Positions 2 through 40,404 of a stretch of DNA of 64,000 bases are shown in pieces. The notes beneath the pieces were generated by a model. The model saw nothing but the letters and a program-made list of their open reading frames with translations, made no database searches and was not told the origin of the DNA. How positions within the stretch are numbered: the first letter of the stretch is position 1; the number at the start of each line of letters is the position of its first letter. The position numbers and the translations under genes were made by a program. Source of the DNA: Bacteroidales bacterium (GTDB taxonomy: Bacteria; Bacteroidota; Bacteroidia; Bacteroidales; UBA7960); contig JAWLHS010000001.1 in the NCBI GenBank assembly GCA_041690235.1, positions 881 through 64,880 on the forward strand, written 5' to 3'.

Positions 2-460
2 GTGAGCAGGACGGATTTTCGAAAATTCCTGGTTTACGCCGCCCTGATCCCGGTCCTGATGTTTGCCCTGGGATGGGCCGTTTCCGGATCGCACAAGCTG
101 CTTTCGAAAGCCCATCCCGATGTATACCTGGCCAATCTGCTGGTTGCCAGACCAGACCTCATGCAGACCACCGACAACATCGATATTGAAACTTTTATGG
201 CCTCCGGAAAAACCCTGGATATGCTGGTCGAGGATGCCGGTATCATACAGGAGAAATTCCGCAAGGGCGGTTGGTTTTTGGGCGGATTTATCGGCTTGGT
301 CATCGGATGGACCCTTTTGAATCAGGTGGTCTTCAGAAAACGAACCATTTACGAGGCCAACCGCGGCAACTGTTTTAGCTGCGGGCGTTGCATGGAATAC
401 TGTCCGGTTGGAAAGCCGGAACACCCCTATCACGCCCAAGCCGATGCACAAAGGGATTGA
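2..460 (+). CDS. membrane-associated 4Fe-4S cluster-binding protein, C-terminal part (5' end lies outside the window)
   Basis: The ORF is open from the window edge. It has two hydrophobic segments (LVYAALIPVLMFALGWAV, WFLGGFIGLVIGWTLL) followed by a ferredoxin-type motif, CFSCGRCMEYCP. Confidence 0.55.
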   Translation: MSRTDFRKFLVYAALIPVLMFALGWAVSGSHKLLSKAHPDVYLANLLVARPDLMQTTDNIDIETFMASGKTLDMLVEDAGIIQEKFRKGGWFLGGFIGLVIGWTLLNQVVFRKRTIYEANRGNCFSCGRCMEYCPVGKPEHPYHAQADAQRD

Positions 461-486
461 ATAGTGAAGCCTTGAATAATTTCAAA

Positions 487-2355
487 ATGAATAGAGAAGA
501 AAAAATAAAGCGAACGAAGCAGGTAGCCATCATTGCCGGGGTGTTCACAGCCCTGGTCAGTCTGTTGCTTTTGCTGAACTATCTGCAAATCAAATCCAGC
601 GACCCCCTGGAAAGCCAAACCCTGAAAACCCTGGTGGACCGCCTTTCAGCAGATCCCGGCAACCATGCACTCATGGAAGAAATCCGTCAGCTTGATTTGC
701 TGGCCCGGAAGGCTTACTTTAACAGCCTCTGGCAGATACGCACCGGAGCCTACCTTCTCCTTTTCGGGGCCATCGTATTGGTCCTGGCCCTGAGGGTTCA
801 CAGCAAGCTGGTCTTCTCCATCGGGAAACCATCCGACGAAAAACCAACAGCCGGCCGGGACAGAAAATTATCGCAACGATGGATTGCGGCAACAGGAGCC
901 ATCATCATCATCGGAGCCGGTATGTCGGCCGTTTTCACCGCCGACTACCTCAGGCCATTCGACACCCTGAAAATGGCAGAAGAAGTTCCAGGCCATGATG
1001 GCATCGAACAGATCGATATTTCCCTGGCAGAGCCCACTGCGAACAGCCCGGAGCCGGAAATGACAACGGGAGGCCCCCCGGCGGGAACTGCAGATGCAGG
1101 CATGGATGCTGATCCCCAGACGCAGGAGATGGTCACGGAAGAAGCATCTGTAGAAACACCGGGTGAAACCACCGCCAGGCAACCCCCACCCCCGTTATTA
1201 ACGGAAGCCTCGGTACGACAAAACCACAACACTTTCAGGGGGCCCTGGGGCACCGGCATCAGTGCCCACGGGAACATCCCCTCTGAATGGGACGCGGCAA
1301 GCGGTGAAAACATCATCTGGAAAACCGAAATCCCCATGCACGGCTACAACTCCCCGGTCCTATGGGACGACAAGCTGTTTATGTCAGGGGCCACCGAAAG
1401 CAGAAGGATGGTCTATTGTTACGACCGCCATACCGGCAGCAAGCAATGGGAAAAGGAGGCCTCCGGAATCCCGGGTTCACCGGCAACACCGCCACGTACA
1501 ACGGATGACACCGGACTGGCAGCGCCGAGCCTGGTGGTCGACGGGCAACGGGTGGTGGCTTTGTTCGGCACGGGCGACATCATTGCCTTCGACCACAACG
1601 GAAACCGTTTATGGGCCAAAAACCTGGGGGTTCCCGCCAATCACTATGGCCACTCTTCTTCATTGTTGATGTGGGACGGGAAGGTGATGGTACAATACGA
1701 CACCCAGGACGGAAGCCGGGTTTTCGCGCTGGAAGCAGCAACGGGACAGATTGCATGGGAAACCCCACGCAGCAACGGGGTAAGCTGGGCCTCCCCCATC
1801 CTGGCGAAAGTCGACGGAACATTTCAACTGATCCTGCTGGCCAACCCCAGCCTTTCCGCCTATGACATCCAAAGCGGACGCCAACTGTGGTCGGTCAATT
1901 GCATGTCGGGCGAGGTGGGTCCTTCTCCGGCTTTTGGCGGGGGACTTGTATATGCTGCCAACGAATACGCCAAAATGGTCGGGGTGGACGCGAAAACGGG
2001 GCAACAGCAGTGGGAAGACAACTATTACCTGCCCGAAGTGGCCAGTCTGCTGTATTTCGACGGACTCCTTTACGTGGCGACCACTTTCGCGGTATTGGCC
2101 TGTTTCGAGGCAAGCAGCGGGGAGTTCTTATGGGAATACGACACGGACGATGGTTTTTATTCTTCTCCGGTCATAGCCGATAACAAATTGTATATTATCG
2201 ACACCAGCGGCAAAGCATATGTCTTTAACCCGGGCAGGGAACCGGATCTGATCGCCACTTCGGAACTCGGGGAAAGGGTGTTCGCCACCCCGGTTTTTGC
2301 GGAGGGAAGATTGTATATCAGGGGAAATCGCCACCTTTACTGTATAGGAAACTAA
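487..2355 (+). CDS. membrane-anchored PQQ-like (BamB-type) beta-propeller repeat protein
   Basis: ATG at 487 (MNREEK), 26 nt after the upstream stop; the 388 start overlaps the upstream gene. Three N-terminal hydrophobic helices and a Pro/Glu/Thr-rich linker precede about 370 aa of repeated propeller blades (e.g. SPVLWDDKLFMSG, GQIAWETPR, GEFLWEYDTDD, SSPVIADNKLYI). Confidence 0.7.
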   Translation: MNREEKIKRTKQVAIIAGVFTALVSLLLLLNYLQIKSSDPLESQTLKTLVDRLSADPGNHALMEEIRQLDLLARKAYFNSLWQIRTGAYLLLFGAIVLVLALRVHSKLVFSIGKPSDEKPTAGRDRKLSQRWIAATGAIIIIGAGMSAVFTADYLRPFDTLKMAEEVPGHDGIEQIDISLAEPTANSPEPEMTTGGPPAGTADAGMDADPQTQEMVTEEASVETPGETTARQPPPPLLTEASVRQNHNTFRGPWGTGISAHGNIPSEWDAASGENIIWKTEIPMHGYNSPVLWDDKLFMSGATESRRMVYCYDRHTGSKQWEKEASGIPGSPATPPRTTDDTGLAAPSLVVDGQRVVALFGTGDIIAFDHNGNRLWAKNLGVPANHYGHSSSLLMWDGKVMVQYDTQDGSRVFALEAATGQIAWETPRSNGVSWASPILAKVDGTFQLILLANPSLSAYDIQSGRQLWSVNCMSGEVGPSPAFGGGLVYAANEYAKMVGVDAKTGQQQWEDNYYLPEVASLLYFDGLLYVATTFAVLACFEASSGEFLWEYDTDDGFYSSPVIADNKLYIIDTSGKAYVFNPGREPDLIATSELGERVFATPVFAEGRLYIRGNRHLYCIGN

Positions 2356-2402
2356 GCCGATTTCGGGCACAAGGCGGCCCGGGCAATTACAGGCATGCAT
2401 CT

Positions 2403-4733
2403 ATGATAGCGCAAACAGATAAAATAATCGCTCAAACGGGAAACGGAAAAGAATCCGTTATCGCGATACTGCAAGCCATCCAGAAGGAATACCATTACCT
2501 TCCGGAAGCAGCGCTGAAACGGGTATGCGAAACGACGGACATTACCGCGGCGGAAATCATCGGGGTGGCCAGCTTTTATTCCCAGTTTCGGTTCCAGCCG
2601 GCCGGCAAGCACCTCGTGAAGGTTTGCGTGGGTACGGCCTGCCATGTGAAGGGAGCCGGACTGGTTTATGATTCCCTGAGACGTGAACTTCATATTGAAG
2701 AAGGCCGGGACACGGACGACAGCCGCACTTTTACGGTGGAGAAGGTCAGTTGCCTGGGATGCTGCACACTGGCACCTGTGGTGCAGATCGACAACACCAC
2801 TTACGGACATGTAAGCCCGGCCACGGCCAAAACCATTATCGAAGATTTTATCAGCCGCGGTGCAGGAAAACAAAAGGGGCCAAAATCCAAGGCCGGCAAA
2901 CAGGCCCTTCAGGGAGAGATTCGTATCGGCCTGGGATCCTGCTGCGTCGCCAGCGGCAGCGATGACATCCGTCAAGCCGTGGAGGAGACCGTGAATAAAG
3001 ACGCCCTGAATGTGAACATTAAACATGTTGGCTGCGTGGGCATGTGCCATCAGGTTCCGCTGGTGGAGATCCTGCCCGAGGGAAAAGCACCGCAACTATA
3101 CGCCAGGGTCACCCCGACAGATATCAGGTATATTGTTGAAAAGCATTTCCAGCCCCACGGTTTTTTTAATCGCCTGAAGAACCGCTTCGAGCACCTGGTT
3201 GAAAACATTCAGCACGAAGGACGCTGGGAGGGCATCGAACGCTACTCCATCAATGTCAGGGAAAAGCACGTCATGGCATTCCTGGGCAACCAGATACCCA
3301 TCGCCACAGAGCACCGTGGCGTGATCAACCCCACCGACATGGAGGAGTATGTGTCCAGGGGCGGCTTTGACGGATTGAAAAAAGCCCTCTCCATGCCCCC
3401 CCCGCAACTGATCGAATTGGTGAAGGCAAGCGGTCTGAAAGGTCGGGGCGGTGCGGGGTTCCCGACCGGACTGAAATGGGAGGCCGTAGCTGGTCAGGAC
3501 GCCCCGGTCAAATACCTGATTTGCAATGGGGACGAAGGTGATCCCGGGGCATTCATGGACCGCATGTTGCTGGAATCCTATCCCTACCGCATCATCGAAG
3601 GCATGCTGATTGCTGCCCGGGCCACCGGGGCCACCCAGGGCTACTTCTATATCCGCGCCGAATACCCGCTGGCCGTGCTGAGGATCCGGGAAGCCCTGGA
3701 GCGATGTACCGCAGAGGGCTGGCTTGGCAGGGATATTGGTGGCTCGGGATTCAGCTTCGACATCCGCATCAAGGAAGGGGCCGGTGCCTTTGTTTGCGGT
3801 GAGGAGACGGCACTGATCGCTTCGATGGAAGGAAGGCGCGGCTTTCCAAGGCTCAGGCCACCTTACCCGGCGGAACGGGGACTATGGGACCGTCCGACAC
3901 TCATCAACAACACCGAAACCTTTGCCCAGTTGCCCTATATTCTGAGCCATGGACATGAAAAGTTCGCCGCCATAGGAACCTCATCCAGCAAGGGCACCAA
4001 GGTGTTCGCCCTGGCAGGCAAGGTCAGCAGGGGCGGTTTGATCGAAGTGCCCATGGGCATCAGCGTCCGCCAAATCGTCGACGACATAGGAGGAGGGGTA
4101 CCGGGTGGCCACAAACTGAAGGCCGTACAAATCGGCGGACCTTCAGGGGGGTGTGTTCCTCATTTTCTGGCGGACCGGCCGGTGGACTTTGAATCGCTGG
4201 GAGAGGTCGGGGCCATGATGGGGTCCGGCGGACTGGTTGTGTTGGATGAAACGGACTGCATGGTCGACATCGCAAAATATTTCCTTTCATTTACCCAGAG
4301 TGAGTCCTGCGGAAAATGTACGTTCTGCAGGGTGGGCACCCGGCGCATGCTGGATATTATGGAAAGACTTTGTGAAGGGAAAGCCGTGGAGGAAGACCTG
4401 GAAGAGCTGGAAACACTGGCAGAATGGACAAAAAAAGGAAGCCTTTGCGGATTGGGAAAAACAGCTCCCAACCCAGTACTGTCCACCCTCCACTACTTCC
4501 GGGAGGAGTACCTGGCCCACATCAAAGGCAGGTGTCCGACAGGAAGTTGCAAGGCACTGATCACTTATTCGGTAAACGACAACTGCATCGGATGTACCAT
4601 CTGTGCCCAGCAATGCCCGGAAGATGCCATTGCATTCGATCCCCACAAAAAACATGAAATTGACACCACGCGATGCACCAAATGCGATATCTGTCGTCAG
4701 GCCTGCCCGGAAGATGCCATCAGTGTAAATTGA
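2403..4733 (+). CDS. fused NuoE-like / NuoF-like NADH-binding FMN Fe-S flavoprotein (HydC-HydB, Bfu-type)
   Basis: N-terminus has the thioredoxin-like 2Fe-2S motif (CVGTACHV ... SCLGCCTLAP), then a second 2Fe-2S-like domain (GSCCVASG ... GCVGMCHQVP). The NuoF core follows (GRGGAGFPTGLKWE, YLICNGDEGDPGAFMDR, GAGAFVCGEETALI, ESCGKCTFCRVG). The C-terminus has two ferredoxin motifs (CIGCTICAQQCP, CTKCDICRQACP). Confidence 0.85.
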   Translation: MIAQTDKIIAQTGNGKESVIAILQAIQKEYHYLPEAALKRVCETTDITAAEIIGVASFYSQFRFQPAGKHLVKVCVGTACHVKGAGLVYDSLRRELHIEEGRDTDDSRTFTVEKVSCLGCCTLAPVVQIDNTTYGHVSPATAKTIIEDFISRGAGKQKGPKSKAGKQALQGEIRIGLGSCCVASGSDDIRQAVEETVNKDALNVNIKHVGCVGMCHQVPLVEILPEGKAPQLYARVTPTDIRYIVEKHFQPHGFFNRLKNRFEHLVENIQHEGRWEGIERYSINVREKHVMAFLGNQIPIATEHRGVINPTDMEEYVSRGGFDGLKKALSMPPPQLIELVKASGLKGRGGAGFPTGLKWEAVAGQDAPVKYLICNGDEGDPGAFMDRMLLESYPYRIIEGMLIAARATGATQGYFYIRAEYPLAVLRIREALERCTAEGWLGRDIGGSGFSFDIRIKEGAGAFVCGEETALIASMEGRRGFPRLRPPYPAERGLWDRPTLINNTETFAQLPYILSHGHEKFAAIGTSSSKGTKVFALAGKVSRGGLIEVPMGISVRQIVDDIGGGVPGGHKLKAVQIGGPSGGCVPHFLADRPVDFESLGEVGAMMGSGGLVVLDETDCMVDIAKYFLSFTQSESCGKCTFCRVGTRRMLDIMERLCEGKAVEEDLEELETLAEWTKKGSLCGLGKTAPNPVLSTLHYFREEYLAHIKGRCPTGSCKALITYSVNDNCIGCTICAQQCPEDAIAFDPHKKHEIDTTRCTKCDICRQACPEDAISVN

Positions 4734-4766
4734 AACCAAACCATGCCACCCGATTGAAAAACAAAG

Positions 4767-6323
4767 ATGATCAAAATAACCATCAATAACAGGGAAGTCG
4801 AAGCCGAAGAGGGCAGCATGTTGCTGGAAGTCTCTGTCGGGGCGGGCTTTCCCATTCCAGCCATGTGTTACAACGGGCAGGAGGAACACTTTACTTCCTG
4901 CATGATATGCCTGGTGAAGGAACGCACCACCGGAAAACTCCTGCCCTCCTGTTCGGTCCGGGTGGCTCCCGGAATGGATATCGTAACAGAGGATGACGAG
5001 ATCAGGACCGCTCGAAAAACAGCCCTGGAATTGCTCCTGTCTGAACACGTCGGTGACTGTGAAGCCCCCTGCCGTATTGCTTGTCCGGCCTTCATGGATA
5101 TTCCCCGAATGAACCGCCTGATTGCAGCCGGGCAGGTTCAACAAGCCCTTGAGGTGGTACGTCGCGACATCGCCCTGCCCGCAGTCCTTGGAAGAATCTG
5201 TCCCGCTCCCTGCGAAGGGGCATGCAAGCGCAGGCCCATCGACCAGCCGGTGGCCATATGCCTGCTGAAACGCTTTACTGCCGATGAATCCGGCCCCTTA
5301 ATGCTGCCGGAAACGGCGACCACCGGCAAAAAAGTGGCCATCATCGGGGCGGGGCCTGCCGGGCTGTCGGCGGCATTCTACCTGCAGCAAAAAGGCATAC
5401 AGGCGGTGATTTTCGACCGCAACCCACTCCCGGGGGGGAGCCTGCAATACGAAATTCCGGATGAAAAACTGGACAAATCCGTGCTTGCCGGAGAGATTTC
5501 ATTGATTCGTCAGACAGGCGTGCAGTTCAGGCCGGACCAACTGATTGATGCAACCGCTTTCGAAAGGCTCCGCAGGGATTACGATGCGGTGGTCGTGGCC
5601 ACCGGGAACCATTCAGCCGCCCTGGATTCCTGGGGTATTGAACACAACGGAAAGCAGTTGCAGGCAGACAAATCGACCCATCAGACCGGGCTCGAAGGTG
5701 TGTTCGCCATAGGCAACGCCAACCGGCCCGGAAAACTCGCCATCCGTTCGGCGGCCCAGGGCAAGGAAGTGGCAAAAAGCATTGAGCAGTTATTCAGCGG
5801 GGAACCGGTGAGGGGAGAAACCAGGCGGTTTAACTCCAGTTTCGGCCGACTGATGGAAGAGGAATTTCCAGAATACCTGAAAGAAGGCAGCCCTGACAAG
5901 CGGCAGCAAGCCCGGGGAAAGCCGGGCAACGGTTTCGACCCCGACCAGGCCCGCATGGAAGCCGCACGGTGTATGCACTGCGACTGCCGCAAACCGGACC
6001 ATTGCAAGCTCAGGGATTATGCCGGGATGTACAAGGCCTCCAGGCGACGCTTCTCTTACTCCAGTCGAAAACCCGTGAGAAAGTTCATGCAGGATGAGGG
6101 GGTTGTCTATGAGCCGGGAAAGTGTATTAAGTGCGGTATCTGTGTGAGACTCACCGCCAGGCACCAGGAAACCTTCGGATTTACATTTATTGGCAGGGGT
6201 TTTGATGTGGAGATAGGGGTTCCCTTCAACGAAACACTGGATAAAGCCCTGGTAAAAACCGCCCAAGCAGTTGCCCTGGCCTGCCCAACCGGGGCGCTTT
6301 GCTTTTCCAAAAATTCAATATAA
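4767..6323 (+). CDS. chimeric Fe-S flavoprotein: NuoG/HydA-type N-terminal 2Fe-2S domain, GltD-like FAD domain, NuoG-type 4Fe-4S C-terminus
   Basis: N-terminus has a C-x10-C-x2-C-x13-C pattern (CYNGQEEHFTSCMICLV...PSC). GltD-type Fe-S motifs follow (DCEAPCRIACP, ICPAPCEGACKR), then the dinucleotide fold KKVAIIGAGPAGLSAAFYL and GVFAIGNA. The C-terminus has CMHCDC...C and CIKCGICVRL...ACPTGAL. Confidence 0.7.
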   Translation: MIKITINNREVEAEEGSMLLEVSVGAGFPIPAMCYNGQEEHFTSCMICLVKERTTGKLLPSCSVRVAPGMDIVTEDDEIRTARKTALELLLSEHVGDCEAPCRIACPAFMDIPRMNRLIAAGQVQQALEVVRRDIALPAVLGRICPAPCEGACKRRPIDQPVAICLLKRFTADESGPLMLPETATTGKKVAIIGAGPAGLSAAFYLQQKGIQAVIFDRNPLPGGSLQYEIPDEKLDKSVLAGEISLIRQTGVQFRPDQLIDATAFERLRRDYDAVVVATGNHSAALDSWGIEHNGKQLQADKSTHQTGLEGVFAIGNANRPGKLAIRSAAQGKEVAKSIEQLFSGEPVRGETRRFNSSFGRLMEEEFPEYLKEGSPDKRQQARGKPGNGFDPDQARMEAARCMHCDCRKPDHCKLRDYAGMYKASRRRFSYSSRKPVRKFMQDEGVVYEPGKCIKCGICVRLTARHQETFGFTFIGRGFDVEIGVPFNETLDKALVKTAQAVALACPTGALCFSKNSI

Positions 6324-6342
6324 AAACCCGATAAATCAACAG

Positions 6343-7446
6343 ATGATGACCCTTAGCGCCCTTCTATTCCTGCTGTTTTTCATCCCACAAGCCAACCAGT
6401 CCGGCTGGCCCGAATTTCGTGGTGGACAACACCTTCGGGGTACCACCTCAGAAACCATTCCCTTCATGGTGGAGCAGCATTGGGTGTTTCAAACGGGCGA
6501 TGAGATCAAGGCATCCCCCGTCATTCAGGGGAACAGCATCGTGATCGGAAGCACCGACCAACATGTGTATTGCCTTGACATGGAGGGGAAGCTGATTTGG
6601 AAGTTCAAAGCCGGCAATGCCATTGAAGCTTCGGCCCTCATCCGAAACGGAATCGTTTATATCGGTGACCTGCATGGCAATCTTTTTGCGCTTGAATTGG
6701 CCAGCGGAAAACAAATCTGGAAGTACGAAACCCAAAACCAGATCATGGCCGCACCAAACTGGTGGAGCGATGGAGAGCGCACGTACATCCTTGTGGGAGC
6801 ATACGATTATTACCTGCATTGCGTGGATGCGAAAACCGGACAGCCCATCTGGAAGTATGAGGCACAGAACTACCTGAATGCAGCAGTGGCCGTCGAAGGC
6901 AATCTGGCCGTCTTCGGGGGGTGCGACGGACTCCTGCACGTTGTCGACATTGAAACCGGAAATGCAGCATCCGCCATCGAAATCGCCACCTATGTAGCCG
7001 GATCAACCGCATTGGACAATGGCAAGGCTTTTGTTGGTGACTATGACGGCATCTTCAGTTGCATTGACTACCGTTCCGGTCAAATCCAGTGGCAGTTTGA
7101 GAGCCGCGACCGCCAGCTGCCCTTTATCGGCTCCCCGGCCATAACGGATAAGCATGTATTCATTGGCAGCCGCGACCGCTTTGTGTATGGTCTGGATATA
7201 AGCACCGGGTCAGTCATATGGCAGAAAAATACCGGTAGCCGTGTCGATGCCTCCCCGCTTGCAGACCGCCGGAACTTGCTTGTAGCGAATATGCGGGGCG
7301 ATCTTTTGCTTTTCAACCAGGAAACCGGTCAAACCGTCTGGACCTACGAGCTGGGAAGCCCGCTTATCGGACATCCGGCTGTATCGCAGGGAAAAATCAT
7401 TGCCGGCGCACAGGACGGCAATATCTATTGCCTGGGTGCGCCCTGA
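6343..7446 (+). CDS. exported PQQ-like (BamB-type) beta-propeller repeat protein
   Basis: ATG at 6343 gives a signal-peptide-like N-terminus, MMTLSALLFLLFFIPQANQ. About eight repeated blades follow (ASPVIQGNSIVIGSTDQHVYCLD, GKLIWKFK, GKQIWKYE, GQPIWKYE, GQIQWQFE, GSVIWQK, GQTVWTYE). Confidence 0.75.
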   Translation: MMTLSALLFLLFFIPQANQSGWPEFRGGQHLRGTTSETIPFMVEQHWVFQTGDEIKASPVIQGNSIVIGSTDQHVYCLDMEGKLIWKFKAGNAIEASALIRNGIVYIGDLHGNLFALELASGKQIWKYETQNQIMAAPNWWSDGERTYILVGAYDYYLHCVDAKTGQPIWKYEAQNYLNAAVAVEGNLAVFGGCDGLLHVVDIETGNAASAIEIATYVAGSTALDNGKAFVGDYDGIFSCIDYRSGQIQWQFESRDRQLPFIGSPAITDKHVFIGSRDRFVYGLDISTGSVIWQKNTGSRVDASPLADRRNLLVANMRGDLLLFNQETGQTVWTYELGSPLIGHPAVSQGKIIAGAQDGNIYCLGAP

Positions 7447-7452
7447 GCGAGA

Positions 7453-7737
7453 GCCGCACCGGTGAGCGCCGCAACGAAATACGGATCAGCGCGCCAGGGC
7501 GCGAAGCCGGTGCGGAACGAGCGCATTTGAAATTTTGAAGAAATTTTGCAGCGCAAGGGCCGCACCGGCGAGCGCCGCAGCGAAATACGAATCAGCGCCC
7601 CAGGGCGCGAAGCCGGTGCGGAACGAGCGCATTTGAAATTTTGAAGAAATTTTGCAGCGCAAGGGCCGCACCGGCGAGCGCCGCAACGAAATACGAATCA
7701 GCGCCCCAGGGCGCGAAGCCGGTGCGGAACGAGCGCA
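7453..7737. repeat. 106-bp tandem repeat, about 2.7 copies, each unit with a 10-bp inverted repeat and an inner GC hairpin
   Basis: Units start at 7453, 7559 and 7665, so the period is exactly 106. Copies differ at only about 4 positions. Each unit contains CCGCACCGGC ... GCCGGTGCGG, an inner GCGCCC-CA-GGGCGC, and an AT-rich tail ATTTGAAATTTTGAAGAAATTTTGCA. Confidence 0.9.
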
Positions 7738-7801
7738 AGCGCCGTAGCGATGAGCGCCGGTGGAAAGGAATCATGTACAAACGAAATGCGAATTGAACGT
7801 A

Positions 7802-9160
7802 ATGAATATTGCACACATCATACCCGGTTCAGGCGGAAGCTTTTATTGCGGCAACTGCCTGCGCGACAGCAAACTCTTTGAAGCCATGCGGGCCCAGGGC
7901 CACAACGCCATCAAAATCCCCATGTACCTGCCCCTGTTCTCGCAAGATACGACCAATGGCATGACCCCGGTGTTTTACGGGGCCATCAGCATCTATTTGA
8001 AGCAACTGTATCCCGTGTTCCGGCATGCCCCCAAATGGTTCGACCGGCTCCTCAACGCAAAATTCATGCTCCGGTTCGCCGCAAGCCAGGCCAATTCAAC
8101 GAGGGCCAGGGGACTGGAAGACATGACCGTGTCCATGCTCATGGGTGAACATGGGAAGCAGAAAGGGGAACTCGAAAAAATGGTTCACTGGCTCGAAACA
8201 CACTATAAGGCCGATGTCATACACATCTCAAATGCGTTGCTGCTCGGACTGGCCCATAAGCTGAAGGAGCACCTCAGGGTGCCGGTAATCTGCTCCCTGC
8301 AGGACGAAGATACCTGGGTTGACGGGATGGAACCCGAATTTGCAGAAAAAGCCTGGGAACTGATGGCAGAGAAGTCGCGCGACATCGATCTGTTTGTTTC
8401 GGTAAGCCACTACTATACCGAGTTCATGAAACATAAACTCCGTCTGCCGGAAGAAAAGATCACCACCCTTCACCTGGGCGTTGACCCATCCGACTATCAT
8501 TACATCAATGCCGCCGACAAAAGCCGGACCATCGGGTTCCTGTCGAGACTGTGCCGGGAGAACGGACTGGACATCCTGGTGGACGCCTTTGTCCTTTTAA
8601 GGAAACAGCCGGCTTACGAAGATGTGAAGTTGTTGCTAACCGGGGGACAAACAGCGGATGACAATGCCTTTATCAAAGAGCAAAAAAAGAAGTTACAACA
8701 AGCCGGCCTGGAAAAGGCGGTGGAATTCATTCACGACTTTGACCAGGCCACCCGGAAAGACTTCTTCGACCGGGTCATGCTGCTTTCGGTTCCGGTACGC
8801 CACGGGGAAGCGTTTGGGATTTACCTTACCGAGGCCATGGCAGCAGGCATTCCAATCGTTCAACCCGCCCTGGGCGCTTTCCCCGAAATCGTAGAAAAAT
8901 CAGGCGGTGGAATGGTTTATTCCGAAAATACCCCTGAACAACTGGCCGGAGCCCTCGAAGCATTATTCTCGGATAAAGAAAAAAGGCGGCAGTTAAGCCA
9001 AAAGGCAAGACAAAGCATCGAAAAGAAGTTCAATGTCCACAATCTGACCAGGGAAATGACCGCTTTGTACCAACAGGCCATTGATCATAATGCCGGCAAA
9101 ACCCGTAAAACAGAATCTTATGCAAATCCAGGTAAAAAACCTGTACAAGACTTATCGTAA
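7802..9160 (+). CDS. glycosyltransferase family 4 (GT-B, group 1)
   Basis: ATG at 7802 (MNIAHIIPGSGGSFYCGNC). The C-terminal GT-B signature is GEAFGIYLTEAMAAGIPIVQP. The length of about 450 aa is typical. Confidence 0.75.
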   Translation: MNIAHIIPGSGGSFYCGNCLRDSKLFEAMRAQGHNAIKIPMYLPLFSQDTTNGMTPVFYGAISIYLKQLYPVFRHAPKWFDRLLNAKFMLRFAASQANSTRARGLEDMTVSMLMGEHGKQKGELEKMVHWLETHYKADVIHISNALLLGLAHKLKEHLRVPVICSLQDEDTWVDGMEPEFAEKAWELMAEKSRDIDLFVSVSHYYTEFMKHKLRLPEEKITTLHLGVDPSDYHYINAADKSRTIGFLSRLCRENGLDILVDAFVLLRKQPAYEDVKLLLTGGQTADDNAFIKEQKKKLQQAGLEKAVEFIHDFDQATRKDFFDRVMLLSVPVRHGEAFGIYLTEAMAAGIPIVQPALGAFPEIVEKSGGGMVYSENTPEQLAGALEALFSDKEKRRQLSQKARQSIEKKFNVHNLTREMTALYQQAIDHNAGKTRKTESYANPGKKPVQDLS

Positions 9161-9803
9161 CACCCTTGGGGGCATTGAGCGTGAGGTCCTGCGGGGCCTC
9201 AATCTCCAGGTGGGCAGCGGAGAAAAAATCGCAGTTACGGGTCCTTCGGGCAGTGGCAAAACCACCCTGCTGAACCTGATCGGCACCCTTGATAAACCAG
9301 ACAAGGGAGAAATTCACATCGGAAACCTATCATTGTCGGATATGAAAGCCGACCAGATCCTCTCCTTTCGGAACAGAACCGCAGGCTTTGTCTTCCAGCT
9401 GCACCACCTGTTGCCACAGTGCACCCTGCTCGAAAATGTTTTGCTTCCCACCCTGCCATTAAAAGGCGACAAGACCGGCTTCAATGACAGGGCGAAAGAC
9501 CTGCTGAAACTGATGGGCATCTGGGAGCAACGAGACAACAAGCCCGGAGAGTTGTCGGGTGGCGAATGCCAGCGGGCCGCTGTGGCCAGGGCGCTGATCA
9601 ACCAGCCCAGGATTTTGTTGGCCGATGAACCCACCGGGTCGCTGGATGCCAAAAACGCGGACCTGCTGATCGACCTGCTCTCCAGCATCAATAAAGAAAT
9701 GGGCATCACCCTGCTGATCGCAACCCATGCAAAGAGCGTCTCCTCCAGGATGGATCTGGTTTACGGGATCACGGAAGGAAAGCTGGCGTTGCAAAAGGCC
9801 TGA
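9120..9803 (+). CDS. ABC transporter ATP-binding protein (LolD/YbbA/MacB-ATPase type)
   Basis: Walker A GPSGSGKTT, signature LSGGECQR, Walker B ILLADEPTGSLD. The start is ambiguous: TTG 9081, ATG 9090 or ATG 9120. All three overlap the 3' end of the glycosyltransferase gene. Confidence 0.9.
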   Translation: MQIQVKNLYKTYRNTLGGIEREVLRGLNLQVGSGEKIAVTGPSGSGKTTLLNLIGTLDKPDKGEIHIGNLSLSDMKADQILSFRNRTAGFVFQLHHLLPQCTLLENVLLPTLPLKGDKTGFNDRAKDLLKLMGIWEQRDNKPGELSGGECQRAAVARALINQPRILLADEPTGSLDAKNADLLIDLLSSINKEMGITLLIATHAKSVSSRMDLVYGITEGKLALQKA

Positions 9804-9892: not shown

Positions 9893-12800
9893 ATGACATT
9901 GTTTCGGCTTATCATCCGCACACTGAAGCATTACCTCGGCACCAACCTGGCCACCGCGGCAGGGATCGCCATTTCCACGGCGGTCATTTGCGGGGCACTG
10001 ATCATTGGCGACTCCCTCAGAAAAAGCCTCTTGCACGTGGTGGATGTCCGCCTGGGCCAAATCACCCACACCATTACGGCCGGGGAACGCATGTTCACCC
10101 GTGGTTTTGCCGAAAACCTGGATGATATCGGCGGACTGGCGGCTGCTCCCGCCCTGAAAAGCGAGGCCGTGGTGACGGTTCAGGGGAACGATCAGCGCGT
10201 CAGCAAGGTACAGGCATGGGGGGTGGACAGTCGGTTCGGGATGGTACTTGGGGCCCCGGACGAATATTTTGAGATGGGCCCGGGGGAGGCCATCATTAGC
10301 CTGAACCTGGCCACGCGTCTGGGACTAGAACCCGGTGATTTCTTTCTGATGCGGATCCGCCAAACCGGACCCATCCCCGCCAATACCCCATTCGTTTCGG
10401 AGGGGGACCAAACCATCTCACGAAGGGTAAAGGTTAAAGCCATTGCCGGCAGGGAGGATTTTGGTCATTTCAGCCTCCGCCCATCACAATCGGCCCCCCT
10501 GAATCTATTTGTGGATCTCGAATGGCTGAACGAAGTGATGAACCTGGAAAACATGGCCAATCTGGTGGCATTGGATGCCGGGACTGCAATGATGAGCTCC
10601 CGCATTACGGAATTGGTCCGGCAATCCTGGCAGCCCGAAGACGGCCATATGAAACTGGAATATCAGGCGTCCGGCAGCTGGAGGCTGACCTCTGAAAGGG
10701 TTTTTTTTGAAAACTACCTGGCTGACAGGATTGAGGCGCTCTTCCCTGAATCGGAATTCTCTCTGACCTATTTTGTAAACGAACTGGAGCACCGTGATCG
10801 TGTAACGCCCTATTCCTTTGTTGCTGCAGTGGACCGGACCGGCCACCCCCTGCTCGCCCCAAATGAAACCCTGATCAACCAGTGGCTGGCCGATGACCTC
10901 ATGGCAAAAACAGGCGACACCCTGCGAATGCGCTATTTTGAGGTCGGCCCCCTGAGGGAATTAAAAGAAAAGGAAGCTGTTTTCATTGTGAAAGGCATTC
11001 TTCCTATGGACCAGGCTGAAGCCGACGGTTATCTGATGCCGGATCTTCCCGGACTCTCCGGTGCAGGAAGCTGCAGTGACTGGGATACAGGCATCCCCAT
11101 CAACCTGGATGCCATCCGCCCAAAGGATGAGCATTACTGGGAGGTTTATAAAGGCGCTCCTAAAGCCTATATTTCCCTGGACAGGGGAAGGTCCCTCTGG
11201 GAAAACCGCTTTGGAAACCTTACCAATGTCATGATCCCAGGCAGTCCATCGGATGGCCCGCAGATAAAGGAAAGGCTCGGCCAACACATCGACCCTTTCA
11301 GGCTGGAGTTCCAGGTTAATCCCGTAAGAGAGCAGGGACTGGAAGCAGCGAGGGGCGGGGTCGATTTCGGGCAATTGTTTGCCGGACTGGGCATGTTTAT
11401 CATTCTTGCCGGACTCCTCCTGACGGTGCTATTGTTGAATTTCAGTCTGGAAAAGAGAAAAACCCAGTTGCAGTTGATGGCCTCCCTGGGCTTCCCGGAA
11501 AAGCTGATCAGGAAAATCCTGGTAACAGAGGCATTGGCTGTAGCAGTCCTTGGAGCCCTTGCCGGATTGGCTGTATCCATAGCATACAGCAGGCTGGTGT
11601 TTATGGGATTAAACCGGATATGGCATGACATTGTCAGGACGGATGTGTTGCAGCTGTATTACAACCCCTGGATGCTGGTCGCCGGACTTATTGCGGGCAT
11701 CTCGCTTGGAATGGGTGTGGTCCTGTTCGGCATTCGAAGCATGCTGAAAAAAAACATCAGGAAAACGGAAACCGGTTCTCAAAAACGGCCTTCCCGGAAA
11801 CCGGGACGGCAGCTCCCGGTCTGGTTGTCCGCCGCATTCCCGGCCACTTCTCTGCTGCTGGCGGGTTATCTGGGAGCCACTTCACAATTTACACAGGTTT
11901 TGGCTTGGTTTCTCGCAGGAGGAATTCTATTGATCGGACTCCTCTTGCTGGCACACACATATTTATATCTTCCGATGCGGGTGTCCTCGGAAACATTAAA
12001 CCTAAACCGGTTGAGCCGAAAAAATATCAGGAGAAACCCGGCCCGCAGTTTTACCATCATCGCCCTGCTGGCCCTGGGCAGCTTCGTTATCGTAGTCACG
12101 GCCGCCAACCGAAAAGACCTGTCTACAGACGCGCTTGCCCCCACGGGCGGAACAGGTGGCTTTCTGTTCATGGCAGAAACCACCGCACCAGTCTTGAGAA
12201 ACCTTAACGGGAACGATACCAGGCTGGAGCTCGGCATCCCCGAAGCGGCCTCCTTCGTGCAGTTCTTATCGGTCTATGACGACGATGCCTCCTGCCTGAA
12301 TCTGAACCGGGTCGAGAACCCCCGCATCCTGGCCACCGACCCGGAACAACTTTTGGGCAGGTTCTCCTTCAAGGCCGTGCATCCCCGGGCAAACAAACAG
12401 GAGCCATGGGGCTCGCTGAACGCCGATCTGAACGGAGTGATCCCGGCCATTGCCGACCAAAGCGTGATCCAGTGGGGCCTGGGGAAAAAACTGGGAGACA
12501 CCCTGACTTACATCAATGCCCGTGGTCATGAGGTGAGGCTTTTGCTGATCGGCGGACTGGCCAATTCGGTGTTTCAGGGAAATGTCATCATTTCATCGGC
12601 GAATTTCCTGGAGCATTTCCCCTCATCGGGGGGGTCCGATGTTTTTCTGGTAGAAGCCCCTGCCCCGGAGGAGGCTGCTCTTCTCCAGGAGCTCGGTTTC
12701 ATATTCCGGGACCATGGCTGGGAAATGCGCAGTGCCCGGGACAAGCTGGCAGCGTTCAATAGCGTGGAAAACACCTACCTTGGCATCTTTTTTCTCATGG

Positions 12801-13156
12801 GGGCCTTTGGCATGTTGCTGGGGACCGTCGGACTGGCCATTATTCTGGCAAAAAGCATGCTTGAACGGCGCAGCGAAACAGCCCTGCTCAGGGCCCTTGG
12901 CTACCCTTTTCGAACCCTGGTGCGGCTTTTTTCATCCGAATACTTCATTTTGTTTATTGCCGGGATGCTGGCAGGAACCCTGGCCGCCATCCTCGCAACC
13001 CTCCCCACCTTCCTGGAAGGCAGTCAAAATATTCCCCTGGGTTTTCTGGCCCTGGTTCTTGGGGTTCTTTTCCTGAACGGAGCGGCCTGGATTCTGATCA
13101 TTCCCGCCGCAATGATCAAAAAAATGTTGCTGACCGAAGCCCTTCGCAATGAGTAA
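9893..13156 (+). CDS. large FtsX-family ABC transporter permease (YbbP-like, two FtsX modules)
   Basis: The protein is 1087 aa. It has an N-terminal TM helix, a large extracytoplasmic region, a central TM bundle, a second extracytoplasmic region and a C-terminal TM bundle. It directly follows the ATPase gene. Confidence 0.85.
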   Translation: MTLFRLIIRTLKHYLGTNLATAAGIAISTAVICGALIIGDSLRKSLLHVVDVRLGQITHTITAGERMFTRGFAENLDDIGGLAAAPALKSEAVVTVQGNDQRVSKVQAWGVDSRFGMVLGAPDEYFEMGPGEAIISLNLATRLGLEPGDFFLMRIRQTGPIPANTPFVSEGDQTISRRVKVKAIAGREDFGHFSLRPSQSAPLNLFVDLEWLNEVMNLENMANLVALDAGTAMMSSRITELVRQSWQPEDGHMKLEYQASGSWRLTSERVFFENYLADRIEALFPESEFSLTYFVNELEHRDRVTPYSFVAAVDRTGHPLLAPNETLINQWLADDLMAKTGDTLRMRYFEVGPLRELKEKEAVFIVKGILPMDQAEADGYLMPDLPGLSGAGSCSDWDTGIPINLDAIRPKDEHYWEVYKGAPKAYISLDRGRSLWENRFGNLTNVMIPGSPSDGPQIKERLGQHIDPFRLEFQVNPVREQGLEAARGGVDFGQLFAGLGMFIILAGLLLTVLLLNFSLEKRKTQLQLMASLGFPEKLIRKILVTEALAVAVLGALAGLAVSIAYSRLVFMGLNRIWHDIVRTDVLQLYYNPWMLVAGLIAGISLGMGVVLFGIRSMLKKNIRKTETGSQKRPSRKPGRQLPVWLSAAFPATSLLLAGYLGATSQFTQVLAWFLAGGILLIGLLLLAHTYLYLPMRVSSETLNLNRLSRKNIRRNPARSFTIIALLALGSFVIVVTAANRKDLSTDALAPTGGTGGFLFMAETTAPVLRNLNGNDTRLELGIPEAASFVQFLSVYDDDASCLNLNRVENPRILATDPEQLLGRFSFKAVHPRANKQEPWGSLNADLNGVIPAIADQSVIQWGLGKKLGDTLTYINARGHEVRLLLIGGLANSVFQGNVIISSANFLEHFPSSGGSDVFLVEAPAPEEAALLQELGFIFRDHGWEMRSARDKLAAFNSVENTYLGIFFLMGAFGMLLGTVGLAIILAKSMLERRSETALLRALGYPFRTLVRLFSSEYFILFIAGMLAGTLAAILATLPTFLEGSQNIPLGFLALVLGVLFLNGAAWILIIPAAMIKKMLLTEALRNE

Positions 13157-13272: not shown

Positions 13273-14772
13273 ATGATACAGGATTTCATACTGAATATTG
13301 CCCTGCTGCTCATTCTTGCATTCGTCTATGGGGTTTTTGCGTATTTGCCGGGGCAAAGCCGCCTGGTCAACCGGTCACTACTCGGCCTTTGGTTCGGGCT
13401 AATCGCCGTGGCGGGAATGTTGATGCCCTTTGTTTATTCCGAGGGGGCGATTTTTGACGGACGGTCGGTGATTCTTGCCCTTGCCGGGTTGTATGGCGGC
13501 TGGTTACCCGCTTTGATTTCTGCCGTGATCGCCGGTTCCTACAGAATCTTCCTGGGCGGGGCCGGGATGTGGGCCGGCCTGGCAACCATTGTTTTTTGCT
13601 CCATGGCGGGACTGTTTTTCAGGTGGCGGTATGCCAACCAGCCGGAACGGATTGATTTGCTTTCCCTTTACGGAATCGGTGTGCTTGTGCACTTGATCAT
13701 GCTTGCCTGCCAGTTGCTGTTCCCATGGCCCACCGGCCTGGCCATCATCAGCCGTATCTGGCTGCCGGTGATGCTGCTGTTCCCGCTTGCATTCGTAATC
13801 ATAGGCCAGACCCTGGGCGGTATCGGCAGACGCATCAAGGCCGAACAGGAAACGCGTGAGGCAGAATCCCGCTACAGGGCCTTGTTCAACAGCATCAGGG
13901 ATGCCATCCTGGTGGCCGATACCAGACGGTTTATTACGCATTGCAATCCGGCATTTACTGATTTGTTCGGCTATACACTCCAGGAGATCAGGGGCAAAAA
14001 AACCCTCACCATCTACAAAAACGAAGATCAATTCAGGGCGTTGGGACAGGCCATCACGGAAGAAGACGGGGCCAGGCCGATCCTCCACACCGTGGATTAT
14101 CAGAAAAAGGACGGGACGGTGTTCCCCGGGGAAACCGCCGTGTTTTTGCAAAAAGACAGCGCAGGGAAGGTTTCAGGGTTTATCGGGCTGATCAGGGATG
14201 TTTCGGACAGGATGCTGGCAGAGACCACCATGCGGATTAGCGAGAAGAAGTACCGGATGGCCTTTAAAACCATTCCGGATGCCCTCTCCATCAATCGCTT
14301 ATCCGACGGATTGTTCATTGAAATCAACGAAAGTTTTACCCGAACAATCGGCTATGCGCCCGAAGAGATCATTGGAAAAACAGCAGGCGAAGTCGAGATA
14401 TGGGCCGACCCGTCCGACAGGAACAAGCTGGTCGACGGCTTGAAAAAGCATGGGCACGTGGAAGGTTTGGAAGCAAGGTTCCGCATGAAAGACGGGAAGA
14501 TTGTCCACGGCTTGATGTCAGCGGCCTTCATCAGCCTGAACGGCGAGCTCCACATCCTGTCCATTACAAGGGACCACTCAGAGCGAAAACGGGCCGAAAT
14601 GGAATTGCGGAAGCTAAAGGATGAGCTGGAACAAAAGGTGGATGAAAAGACCAGTGAATTGCAGGAAAGGGTCAGGGAGCTGGAGCGCTTTCGCCAAGCG
14701 ACCATCGACCGTGAGCTCCGGATAAAGGAACTGCGTGATGAAATTAAAAGGCTGAAAGGGAACAAGCAATGA
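13273..14772 (+). CDS. 5TMR-LYT (LytS/YhcK-type) membrane sensor with two PAS domains and a C-terminal coiled coil; no kinase domain
   Basis: The N-terminal 190 aa are multi-TM with GRSVILALAGLYGGWLPALISAVIAGSYRIFLGG. Two PAS-like blocks follow (ESRYRALFNSIRDAILV..., EKKYRMAFKTIPDALSI...). The protein ends in the coiled coil ELRKLKDELEQKVDEKTSELQERVRELERF. No H-box or ATPase motifs are present. Confidence 0.75.
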   Translation: MIQDFILNIALLLILAFVYGVFAYLPGQSRLVNRSLLGLWFGLIAVAGMLMPFVYSEGAIFDGRSVILALAGLYGGWLPALISAVIAGSYRIFLGGAGMWAGLATIVFCSMAGLFFRWRYANQPERIDLLSLYGIGVLVHLIMLACQLLFPWPTGLAIISRIWLPVMLLFPLAFVIIGQTLGGIGRRIKAEQETREAESRYRALFNSIRDAILVADTRRFITHCNPAFTDLFGYTLQEIRGKKTLTIYKNEDQFRALGQAITEEDGARPILHTVDYQKKDGTVFPGETAVFLQKDSAGKVSGFIGLIRDVSDRMLAETTMRISEKKYRMAFKTIPDALSINRLSDGLFIEINESFTRTIGYAPEEIIGKTAGEVEIWADPSDRNKLVDGLKKHGHVEGLEARFRMKDGKIVHGLMSAAFISLNGELHILSITRDHSERKRAEMELRKLKDELEQKVDEKTSELQERVRELERFRQATIDRELRIKELRDEIKRLKGNKQ

Positions 14773-40297: not shown

Positions 40298-40404
40298 GAA
40301 TTGATGGTTCACGACATATATTCAAAAAGCACGCCATTAAGATTATATCGCTTTACATCAGGGACTTCACATTGAGGCGGTAAACAAGGTGAAGCAAAAA
40401 TGAA

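Follow-up and report, generated by a model that had tools for sequence, protein, structure and literature searches.

A conserved Bacteroidota gene cluster combining a Bfu-type flavin iron-sulfur module with a NapH-like membrane protein, a Tat-signalled ferredoxin and exported propeller proteins

Gene organisation of the locus

The stretch of DNA analysed here, referred to as the window, comprises 64,000 nucleotides (nt) from the genome of a Bacteroidales bacterium (contig JAWLHS010000001.1). It starts with five genes on the same strand, numbered (i) to (v), which encode a membrane iron-sulfur (Fe-S) protein, two propeller proteins and two proteins related to the electron-bifurcating Bfu enzymes. 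Domains were called with Pfam and NCBIfam profiles at their curated cut-offs, and the coordinates of the five genes are given on the plus strand of the window:

2-460, plus strand: gene (i), NapH/NosH-like membrane polyferredoxin (PF12801), C-terminal 152 of 448 amino acids (aa), cut by the window edge
487-2355, plus strand: gene (ii), membrane-anchored propeller protein, 622 aa, with three transmembrane (TM) helices, a linker and an eight-bladed PQQ_2-type propeller, predicted to be periplasmic
2403-4733, plus strand: gene (iii), BfuC-BfuB fusion, 776 aa, assigned by Pfam and by alignment to solved bifurcating enzymes
4767-6323, plus strand: gene (iv), BfuA lacking the NADPH domain, 518 aa, assigned by Pfam and by alignment to NfnA
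6343-7446, plus strand: gene (v), secreted eight-bladed PQQ_2/ACSF4-type propeller, 367 aa, assigned by Pfam and by its hydrophobic N-terminus

The genes are separated by 26, 47, 33 and 19 nt in the table of open reading frames (ORFs), which reproduces the spacing given in the original prediction, an earlier reading of the same DNA. In the public record, gene (ii) starts with a TTG codon at position 457 and overlaps the stop codon of (i); either way, the gap is at most 26 nt. Internal terminators that might split the block had also been considered in that reading. No convincing one was found on the plus strand, where the 25 terminator-like sites (17.4 ± 4.0 in shuffled sequences) are all weak and lie inside ORFs. 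The promoter and terminator scan does not model Bacteroidota promoters, and its counts, being near the shuffle expectation, are uninformative.

An NCBI contig of a metagenome-assembled genome (MAG), here called L001, was found via an exact occurrence of protein (iii). It shows 2 mismatches to the window across 14,733 nt and adds 7.6 kb upstream. Relatives of (iv) were scanned in a collection holding one genome per species, which yielded at least 566 stretches, and the best 80 of these were taken for synteny. Gene order was compared by tblastn of all cluster proteins against these approximately 80 species-level loci and is readable only where the contig is long enough. For (iv), an exhaustive HMMER search of 1.84 billion representatives was performed as well. 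Residues are referred to as conserved if they are kept in at least 95% of the orthologues.

The cytoplasmic module

Protein (iii) begins with a NuoE/BfuC part carrying the [2Fe-2S] cluster C1 (residues 1-150; PF01257 at residues 6-148, 2.1e-50), which is followed by a NuoF part with the site for flavin mononucleotide (FMN) and NAD(H) (PF01512, 1.7e-45; PF10589, 9.5e-32). All three profiles confirm the NuoE-NuoF fusion that had been proposed for this gene. The protein also features a thioredoxin-like 2Fe-2S domain, an N3-type [4Fe-4S] cluster and two C-terminal [4Fe-4S] clusters (Fer4_21 at residues 725-774). Full-length alignments of residues 172-775 with NfnB, StnB and HydB from solved bifurcating enzymes (E values from 1e-212 to 1e-185) take in the loop for FMN/NAD(H), the B1 cluster and the Cys/His B2 (Zn) site as well as the pair of C-terminal clusters for ferredoxin docking (B3/B4). 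The motifs GRGGAGFPTG, ESCGKCTFCR...C and H..GRCP...CK are present and aligned with Tsib NfnB. The Bfu extras that are absent from non-bifurcating NuoF, namely the thioredoxin-like domain, the B2 site and the B3/B4 docking domain, were all found. Judged by its sequence, (iii) unites in one fused chain the complete BfuC-BfuB core of electron-bifurcating Bfu enzymes, as this core is defined in PMC9304861 and PMC11829005.

Protein (iv) is composed of a Fer2_4 domain (residues 1-75), a Fer4_20 domain (1.9e-17), a Rossmann fold for flavin adenine dinucleotide (FAD) and a set of NuoG-type clusters. The corresponding sites are one [2Fe-2S], two GltD-type [4Fe-4S], GAGPAG ... VFAIGN, CxxCxCx5C and CxxCxxC...CP, the last two of which are invariant in 18 homologues. 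Best matches in the PDB are NfnA and StnC (9bov_A, 9n5u_A, 8oh5_C). Residues 1-282 pair with residues 3-288 of NfnA and the alignment restarts at chain residue ~426, so that the NADPH Rossmann domain of ~140 aa is missing; a second GxGxxG motif was not found in (iv). The C-terminal molybdopterin-like half of NfnA/StnC is likewise missing, and residues 402-512 align with HydA1 of 8a6t. The deletion of the NADPH domain is present in 18 of 18 aligned family members, with the junction 'DAVVVATG ... T..VFAIGN' kept and the GD motif reading GN. This architecture of ~515 aa accounts for hundreds of homologues with identities of 52-73%, for more than 120 representatives at 50% clustering and for most of the best 150 HMMER matches, down to 37% identity.

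By these alignments, (iv) clearly reads as a BfuA of the NfnA/StnC type that kept the Fe-S chain and the FAD fold and lost the NADPH-binding domain. The GltD-type domains of the original prediction are thus upheld, and its description of the protein as merely chimeric gives way to that of a BfuA homologue without NADPH domain and molybdopterin-like half. Since the NADPH-binding domain is absent, a nicotinamide third substrate is not expected. With the chain and the FAD fold kept and the nicotinamide site gone, (iv) looks like an adaptor whose FAD end faces something else. In NfnABC, electrons pass from NADPH to FAD, along A7-A6-A3-A2-A1 to B1/FMN/C1, and then via B3/B4 to ferredoxin (PMC11829005). 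Every testable Bfu feature was found in (iii) and (iv) together, and the pair is predicted to have bifurcating or confurcating activity.

The solved NfnABC/StnABC enzymes, whose NfnB and NfnA are the best PDB matches of (iii) and (iv), might suggest an ordinary Nfn-Bfu/Stn transhydrogenase of NADPH, NAD+ and ferredoxin that stands by chance among membrane genes. We regard this as very improbable, as the NADPH-binding Rossmann domain is missing throughout the family of (iv); a plain Nfn/Stn transhydrogenase was rejected on the basis of this deletion. An NADPH site provided in trans by an FNR-like gene of L001 was rejected too, because FNR-like and ProC-like genes are conserved in no other locus. 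Both belong to a group of genes just upstream of the cluster (L001 1-1968) that was observed in this genome only and consists of an ArsP-type permease, a 72-aa ORF, the FNR-like flavoprotein (218 aa) and the ProC-like reductase.

Rare fusions of (iv) were observed in three loci. On one MAG contig labelled Syntrophothermus sp. (L090 1305-3908), (iv) and (v) form a single ORF of 867 aa, joined via the signal/TM segment of the propeller, which is either a genuine cytoplasm-TM-periplasm fusion or the result of a lost stop codon. A relative of (iv) in L091 (10001-12856) carries a C-terminal URO-D/MtaA-like domain, a weak match (Pfam 2.6e-7; mtaA_cmuA 17.7 bits). The third case, a relative of 1133 aa (L092 1690-5091), combines the NADPH-less architecture of (iv) with a second complete GltD-like module that has an NAD(P)H domain; it adjoins a NuoF-like gene, apparently with no membrane genes nearby. 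These fusions support the view of (iv) as a modular adaptor.

The NapH-like protein, the Tat ferredoxin and the Cys4 protein

The window fragment of (i), with one CxxCxxCxxxCP motif and two TM segments, agrees with the truncated membrane 4Fe-4S protein described originally. Upstream extension into L001 recovered the complete gene, together with a ferredoxin carrying a signal for twin-arginine translocation (Tat), a small protein with four cysteines (Cys4 protein) and three more anchored or exported propellers (see below). It strengthens the earlier idea of electron flow across the membrane. Three of the genes of this region are:

L001 5894-6082: small Cys4 protein, ~62 aa, an uncalled ORF between the NHL-protein and ferredoxin genes
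L001 6149-6715, same strand as the cluster: Tat ferredoxin, 188 aa, with four Cys motifs, directly upstream of (i)
L001 6712-8058, same strand as the cluster: complete NapH-like gene (i), 448 aa, recovered from the upstream contig

The complete protein (i) has a signal-like N-terminus, ~7 TM helices, three CxxxCP-type motifs and two CxxCxxCxxxCP [4Fe-4S] sites predicted to lie on the cytoplasmic side. It matches Fer4_5 (PF12801, 1.6e-14) with 54 bits, above the cut-off of 22, and 135 of 474 positions are conserved in 62 orthologues. Among NCBIfam models, the best matches are NapH/MauN and NosR, all below cut-off.

The ferredoxin gene starts with an ATG 30 codons earlier than the public gene call, and the late call removes the twin-arginine signal. 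The motif reads NRRQFI; across 57 orthologues, R7, R8 and F10 are conserved, as is each of the four Cys motifs, and the Tat motif is also present in the ferredoxin of L091. Given the conserved twin-arginine signal and the four Cys motifs, the ferredoxin should be located in the periplasm. Its best PDB match is the polyferredoxin 9mqx_E (E 1e-4); PDB sequence searches with the NapH-like protein and the ferredoxin otherwise returned generic Fe-S motifs only.

The Cys4 protein is present in 58 of 58 loci. It is characterised by the pattern M-[DN]-R-[RK]-x-F, a hydrophobic helix and the spacing C-x5-7-C-x2-C-x5-6-C, and searches of family libraries matched nothing. Pairing of the Tat ferredoxin with the NapH-like protein would provide a plausible Fe-S route across the membrane.

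The propeller proteins

Five propeller proteins with signal peptides or TM anchors are encoded in the cluster. Besides (ii) and (v), these are P407 (secreted PQQ_2 propeller, 407 aa) and P475 (TM-anchored PQQ_2 propeller, 475 aa), both encoded upstream in L001 on the same strand, and a TM-anchored NHL protein of 311-320 aa, encoded between the P475 and Cys4 genes. The four PQQ_2 propellers are distant paralogues with identities of 21-25%.

In (ii), hydrophobic helices span residues 12-30, 84-102 and 133-151, and a linker rich in E, P, T and A (residues 160-245) leads to the propeller (PQQ_2, E 2e-33). The three-helix anchor, the Pro/Glu/Thr-rich linker and the propeller recognised originally are all borne out. 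Conservation of (ii) extends to 66 orthologues and takes in the pocket motif NHYGHSSS; (v) is a PQQ_2/ACSF4 propeller (4e-69) conserved in 69 orthologues.

P475 shows 139 conserved residues out of 475, including H115, H163, H185, C188, C218, H260, C313, C385, C470 and several Met. Many of these are located in segments ahead of the first strand of each blade and would line a central pocket. The structural model of P475 (predicted local distance difference test score, pLDDT, 84.6) consists of a TM helix and an eight-bladed propeller, and Foldseek returned BamB and the cofactor-free tetrathionate hydrolase at ~15% identity. For the NHL protein, the model (pLDDT 87) shows a TM helix and a six-bladed NHL propeller similar to TRIM NHL domains (template modelling score about 0.7); the protein has an invariant GCCNP insert.

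The propeller fold originally proposed for (ii) and (v) was supported, and the assignment to BamB was not: TIGR03300, with a cut-off of 285.2, scored (ii) at 82.8 bits and (v) at 151.3. They do not share the lipoprotein character of BamB either, as (ii) is held by three TM helices and (v) is devoid of a lipobox Cys. An identity as dehydrogenases dependent on pyrroloquinoline quinone (PQQ) was also rejected, with TIGR03075 scores of 46.9 and 73.5 bits against a cut-off of 480, and of 20.7 bits for P475. No propeller of the cluster attains the curated cut-offs for BamB or for PQQ dehydrogenases.

Gene order, conservation and distribution

The genes were found in the fixed order P407, P475, NHL protein, Cys4 protein, Tat ferredoxin, NapH-like protein (i), (ii), (iii), (iv), (v), GT4, ABC ATPase and double-FtsX permease. 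Downstream of (v), the window contains:

7802-9160, plus strand: GT4-family glycosyltransferase, 452 aa, co-conserved downstream in Bacteroidota
9120-9803, plus strand: LolD/FtsE-like ATPase of the ATP-binding cassette (ABC) type, 227 aa; TIGR02211 228 bits, below the cut-off of 307.75
9893-13156, plus strand: duplicated FtsX/MacB-type permease, 1087 aa, with FtsX (PF02687) found twice and a weak MacB_PCD match

The order is kept in nearly all of the species-level loci long enough to show it, which is far beyond chance. Genes upstream of P407 and downstream of FtsX differ between loci, and the double-FtsX permease is the final conserved gene of the Bacteroidota cluster. Median gaps within the cluster were estimated at 12-74 nt; in locus L003, several adjacent genes overlap by 4 nt and the start of GT4 overlaps the stop codon of the (v) homologue. 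The five genes of the window, initially taken as the unit, are instead the centre of a conserved cluster of 12-13 genes in Bacteroidota, with an eight-gene core elsewhere.

The best 80 of the at least 566 stretches belong almost entirely to Bacteroidota (Draconibacterium, Mariniphaga, Maribellus, Tangfeifania and other Bacteroidales), with one MAG labelled Chlorobiota. Two distant members of the (iv) family, with identities to (iv) of 36% (tblastn) and 44% (HMMER), are located in the same cluster. In L091, from a genome with 68% G + C content, the eight-gene core consists of P475, an NHL protein with GCCNP, the Cys4 protein, the Tat ferredoxin, the NapH-like protein, a TM-anchored propeller homologous to (ii), BfuCB and a BfuA-like protein; GT4, ABC and FtsX genes and a (v) homologue are absent from this locus. 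The original prediction had set the co-conservation of the propeller and NuoEF/GltD genes as a test beforehand, and it holds decisively: the packaging of an electron-input module with a membrane Fe-S protein and exported propellers recurs in ~80 genomes and in this distant one.

In three related genomes (L059, L070 and L077, positions ~5800-9800), the block from (iv) to FtsX stands directly behind hemN-hemY-hemH, without the upstream half of the cluster, so physical linkage is not absolute. The hemY gene of this trio is a protoporphyrinogen-oxidase-like gene. A connection to tetrapyrrole metabolism is a lead only, as the URO-D match in L091 is weak and the hem genes adjoin the block in a single lineage only.

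Selfish genes were repeatedly found inserted between cluster genes in many loci, where they occupy the larger gaps and leave the gene order undisturbed. From their N-terminal sequences, we take them to be four-helix-bundle/23S-IVS, GxxExxY, IS200/RAYT-like and YhcG-like genes.

It could be argued that two unrelated neighbours were inherited side by side, with the propellers, GT4, ABC and FtsX proteins forming an envelope-biogenesis unit with BamB-like scaffolds and the Fe-S genes encoding an independent redox enzyme. The propellers are BamB-like in fold, and a redox cofactor site is not recognisable in them; GT4 enzymes and FtsX-type ABC transporters typically serve the envelope, and the intergenic regions tolerate inserted selfish genes. 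However, propeller and redox genes are interleaved (P475, NHL, Cys4, ferredoxin, NapH, propeller, Bfu, Bfu, propeller), and the interleaved core is kept in the genome of 68% G + C content without GT4, ABC and FtsX. Stop/start overlaps join both kinds of genes in L003 and the BamB models score well below their cut-offs; a mere neighbourhood is improbable.

Proposed function

We propose that the cluster encodes an Fe-S electron route from a cytoplasmic NADH/ferredoxin enzyme to a periplasmic propeller assembly, a tentative reading to which we assign a probability of roughly 45%. The parts, their predicted sidedness and their co-inheritance are as described above, and we infer the wiring between them. 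NADH, probably together with reduced ferredoxin (confurcation), would be oxidised on (iii). Electrons would then exit through (iv), along its cluster chain and FAD, and enter the NapH-like protein at its cytoplasmic clusters. From there, they would be passed across the membrane to the Tat ferredoxin, possibly with the small Cys4 protein as an intermediate. Finally, they would reduce a substrate held by the periplasmic propeller assembly, with P475 as the likeliest catalytic subunit and the NHL propeller and (ii) as its partners. GT4, ABC, FtsX, P407 and (v) may be Bacteroidota-specific accessories, perhaps for assembly or substrate handling. The scheme is in line with a proposal on NapH-like proteins, by which they act as modular conduits for electrons across the membrane and pair with reductases or oxidases of the periplasm, some of them PQQ-type propellers (PMC8238504). 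The in-frame (iv)-TM-(v) fusion of L090 also fits a cytoplasmic (iv) meeting a periplasmic (v) at the membrane. The trans-envelope redox system of the original prediction is retained for the step from cytoplasm to periplasm; it does not extend to the whole envelope, as no outer-membrane component was found.

Several observations weigh against this proposal. Protein (i) stays below the NapH cut-offs (TIGR02163 51.9 bits against 213; PRK09477 46 against 234), and the ferredoxin reaches 17.6 bits with the mauM_napG model, the cut-off of which is 178.85. The mechanism by which NapH-type proteins move electrons through the bilayer is established for no member of the family, and a quinone could be the true partner. 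Fold searches with the propellers gave generic matches only (BamB, tetrathionate hydrolase, TRIM NHL), and no redox cofactor or substrate could be assigned from them. The cluster is broken between (iii) and (iv) in three related genomes, meaning that strict co-transcription is not required, and the (iv)-(v) fusion comes from a single MAG contig, where a sequencing error is possible. Bfu enzymes are reversible, so that electrons may run in either direction.

Electrons might also flow inwards, with a periplasmic propeller enzyme oxidising a low-potential donor. The electrons would be relayed by the Tat ferredoxin, the NapH-like protein and (iv), and the Bfu core would bifurcate them to NAD+ and ferredoxin. 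The direction is that of Nfn-Bfu using NADPH, and characterised Bfu enzymes take a mid-potential donor at the BfuA side while the core reduces NAD+ and ferredoxin (PMC11829005). Some NapH-like systems are in addition paired with periplasmic oxidases such as ExaA-type PQQ propellers (PMC8238504). A donor near -400 mV on a propeller without known cofactor has no precedent, though; the PQQ-dehydrogenase models matched far below their cut-offs, and the potential of PQQ is much too positive for NAD+ or ferredoxin. Inward flow is quite unlikely.

A quinone may take part in a different manner. In this alternative, which we consider unlikely, the NapH-like protein provides a menaquinone/menaquinol site as in NapGH, and the quinone pool is the third, high-potential partner of the Bfu enzyme. 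Either NADH would reduce ferredoxin and menaquinone, as in Fix/EtfABCX, or NADH and reduced ferredoxin would jointly reduce menaquinone, which has been proposed for Nuo-Bfu. On the periplasmic side, the Tat ferredoxin and the propellers would form a branch of their own that depends on quinol and shares the same membrane subunit. Bfu enzymes have been predicted to use quinones, among others, as third substrates (PMC9304861), (iv) is devoid of any site for a soluble substrate, and the NapH-like protein is the point at which both ends of the chain meet. On the other hand, the cluster encodes no proton-pumping or other quinone-reactive subunit, and the co-conservation of propellers and Bfu genes, even in a distant phylum, would be left unexplained.

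A more far-reaching version of the proposed electron route, which we hold to be doubtful, is that the cluster encodes the first Bfu-type (confurcating) enzyme hard-wired across the cytoplasmic membrane, feeding low-potential electrons to a new class of periplasmic propeller oxidoreductase via a NapH-type conduit and a Tat ferredoxin. It would be a respiratory or detoxifying machine in which the His/Cys/Met pocket of P475 works with the NHL propeller bearing a vicinal Cys-Cys pair. It would also make the first cytoplasmic electron donor identifiable for the cytoplasmic clusters of a NapH/NosR-family protein. Taken by itself, the idea that the periplasmic end represents a new kind of enzyme has a substantial chance of being right, albeit below even odds.

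Comparison with known systems

Compared to Nfn-Bfu, StnABC and NfnABC (PDB 9bov, 9n5u, 8oh5; PMC11829005, PMC12018979, PMC7483475), (iii) matches NfnB/StnB with an N-terminal NfnC/StnA fusion, and (iv) has the [2Fe-2S] cluster, the two GltD-type [4Fe-4S] clusters, the FAD fold and the NuoG/HydA-type clusters in common with NfnA/StnC. In contrast to these enzymes, (iv) has neither the NADP(H)-binding domain (~140 aa) nor the molybdopterin-like half at the C-terminus; BfuC and BfuB form a single chain, and the genes are located amid those of membrane and periplasmic proteins instead of forming a three-gene operon for a soluble complex.

With NapGH/NosGH and NapH-like systems (PMC8238504), the cluster appears to share a Fer4_5 protein that spans the membrane several times and carries CxxxCP motifs plus a pair of predicted cytoplasmic [4Fe-4S] clusters, an adjoining putative Tat four-cluster ferredoxin and the association with a periplasmic enzyme, which is a propeller in some known cases (NosZ, NirS, ExaA). 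It differs in having no FMN-binding domain or ApbE, in the ~7 TM helices with the second cluster after an extra TM hairpin, and in scores far below the NapH/NapG cut-offs. Only here is an NADH-oxidising Bfu module encoded alongside as a candidate cytoplasmic partner. NapAB, NosZ, NirS or another known terminal reductase, including reductive dehalogenase, were found neither in the window nor in the loci examined. The membrane-periplasm pair is predicted to work like NapGH/NosGH and is not a member of that family by curated scores.

Nuo-Bfu and Mbh-Bfu, which are predicted to be membrane-bound (PMC9304861), likewise have a BfuBC core within a membrane-complex gene cluster and a third substrate other than H2 or NADP. 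Their membrane partners are complex-I/Mbh-type pumping modules, whereas the partner here is a NapH-type Fe-S protein and the electron sink or source would be periplasmic. WOR-Bfu has a polyferredoxin 'nanowire' (PDB 9mqx; PMC12318220), in which a polyferredoxin with four clusters links the Bfu core to its catalytic partner, as proposed here; in contrast, WOR-Bfu is soluble and ends in a tungstopterin enzyme, and the ferredoxin of our cluster is Tat-signalled and expected across the membrane from the Bfu core. BamB and other eight-bladed propellers of the PQQ_2 type, including tetrathionate hydrolase (PDB 6l8a), share the fold and the Pfam family PQQ_2. Unlike BamB, the proteins studied here are no BAM-type lipoproteins, and the highly conserved pocket of P475, rich in His, Cys and Met, has no counterpart in BamB; the identity to tetrathionate hydrolase is only 15%.

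The usual catalytic partners of NuoEF-type modules are absent, as noticed originally. Full-text literature searches found no described complex that matches the locus and no account of this cluster or of a characterised homologous one, although absence there is no proof. Taken together, the cluster is a new combination built from known kinds, Bfu plus NapGH-like.

Flanking and additional genes

The spacer between (v) and GT4 is 355 nt long in the window and contains a 106-bp tandem unit (x2.7, 97% matches, 7453-7737) of which the window has no further copy. Other genomes have a short spacer at this place or an overlap of the two genes. Several Prolixibacteraceae (L024, L030, L046, L050, L063, L071, L082) encode a secreted protein of ~358 aa between the (iii) and (iv) homologues. 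An esterase gene of the SASA family (PF03629) is located between the ABC and FtsX genes of L002 (15050-16465), and its vicinity to GT4 may hint at glycan or lipid chemistry.

Two sensor genes follow FtsX in the region 13273-17030 of the window. The first encodes 5TMR-LYT and two PAS domains (13273-14772) and had no match in other loci; the second encodes a periplasmic SBP_bac_3 domain, a PAS domain and a histidine kinase, and no locus matched when it was used as query. Both seem to lie outside the conserved cluster. Two more MacB_PCD/FtsX permease genes are present at 32038-34521 and 37946-40312, both on the minus strand, indicating a genome with many FtsX-type transporters. Elsewhere, the window contains genes for SusC/SusD, TonB-dependent receptors and Suf, which is consistent with a Bacteroidota genome.

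Significance

Bfu-type enzymes have so far been soluble complexes or predicted complex-I/Mbh-like pumps. If the proposed electron route is true, the family gains a third port in the form of a membrane Fe-S conduit to the periplasm. Schut et al. (2022) listed 17 BfuB clades without assigned function (PMC9304861), and the cluster might give functions to some of them. The electron source of NapH/NosR proteins, a quinol or a cytoplasmic donor, is still debated, and the cluster encodes a candidate cytoplasmic donor alongside. Cultured carriers exist (Draconibacterium, Maribellus, Mariniphaga), which makes this question testable. Relatives are widespread in Bacteroidota of sediments and digesters, where the at least 566 stretches encode relatives of (iv), and occur in at least one other lineage. 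A periplasmic redox reaction of ecological weight may be hidden here.

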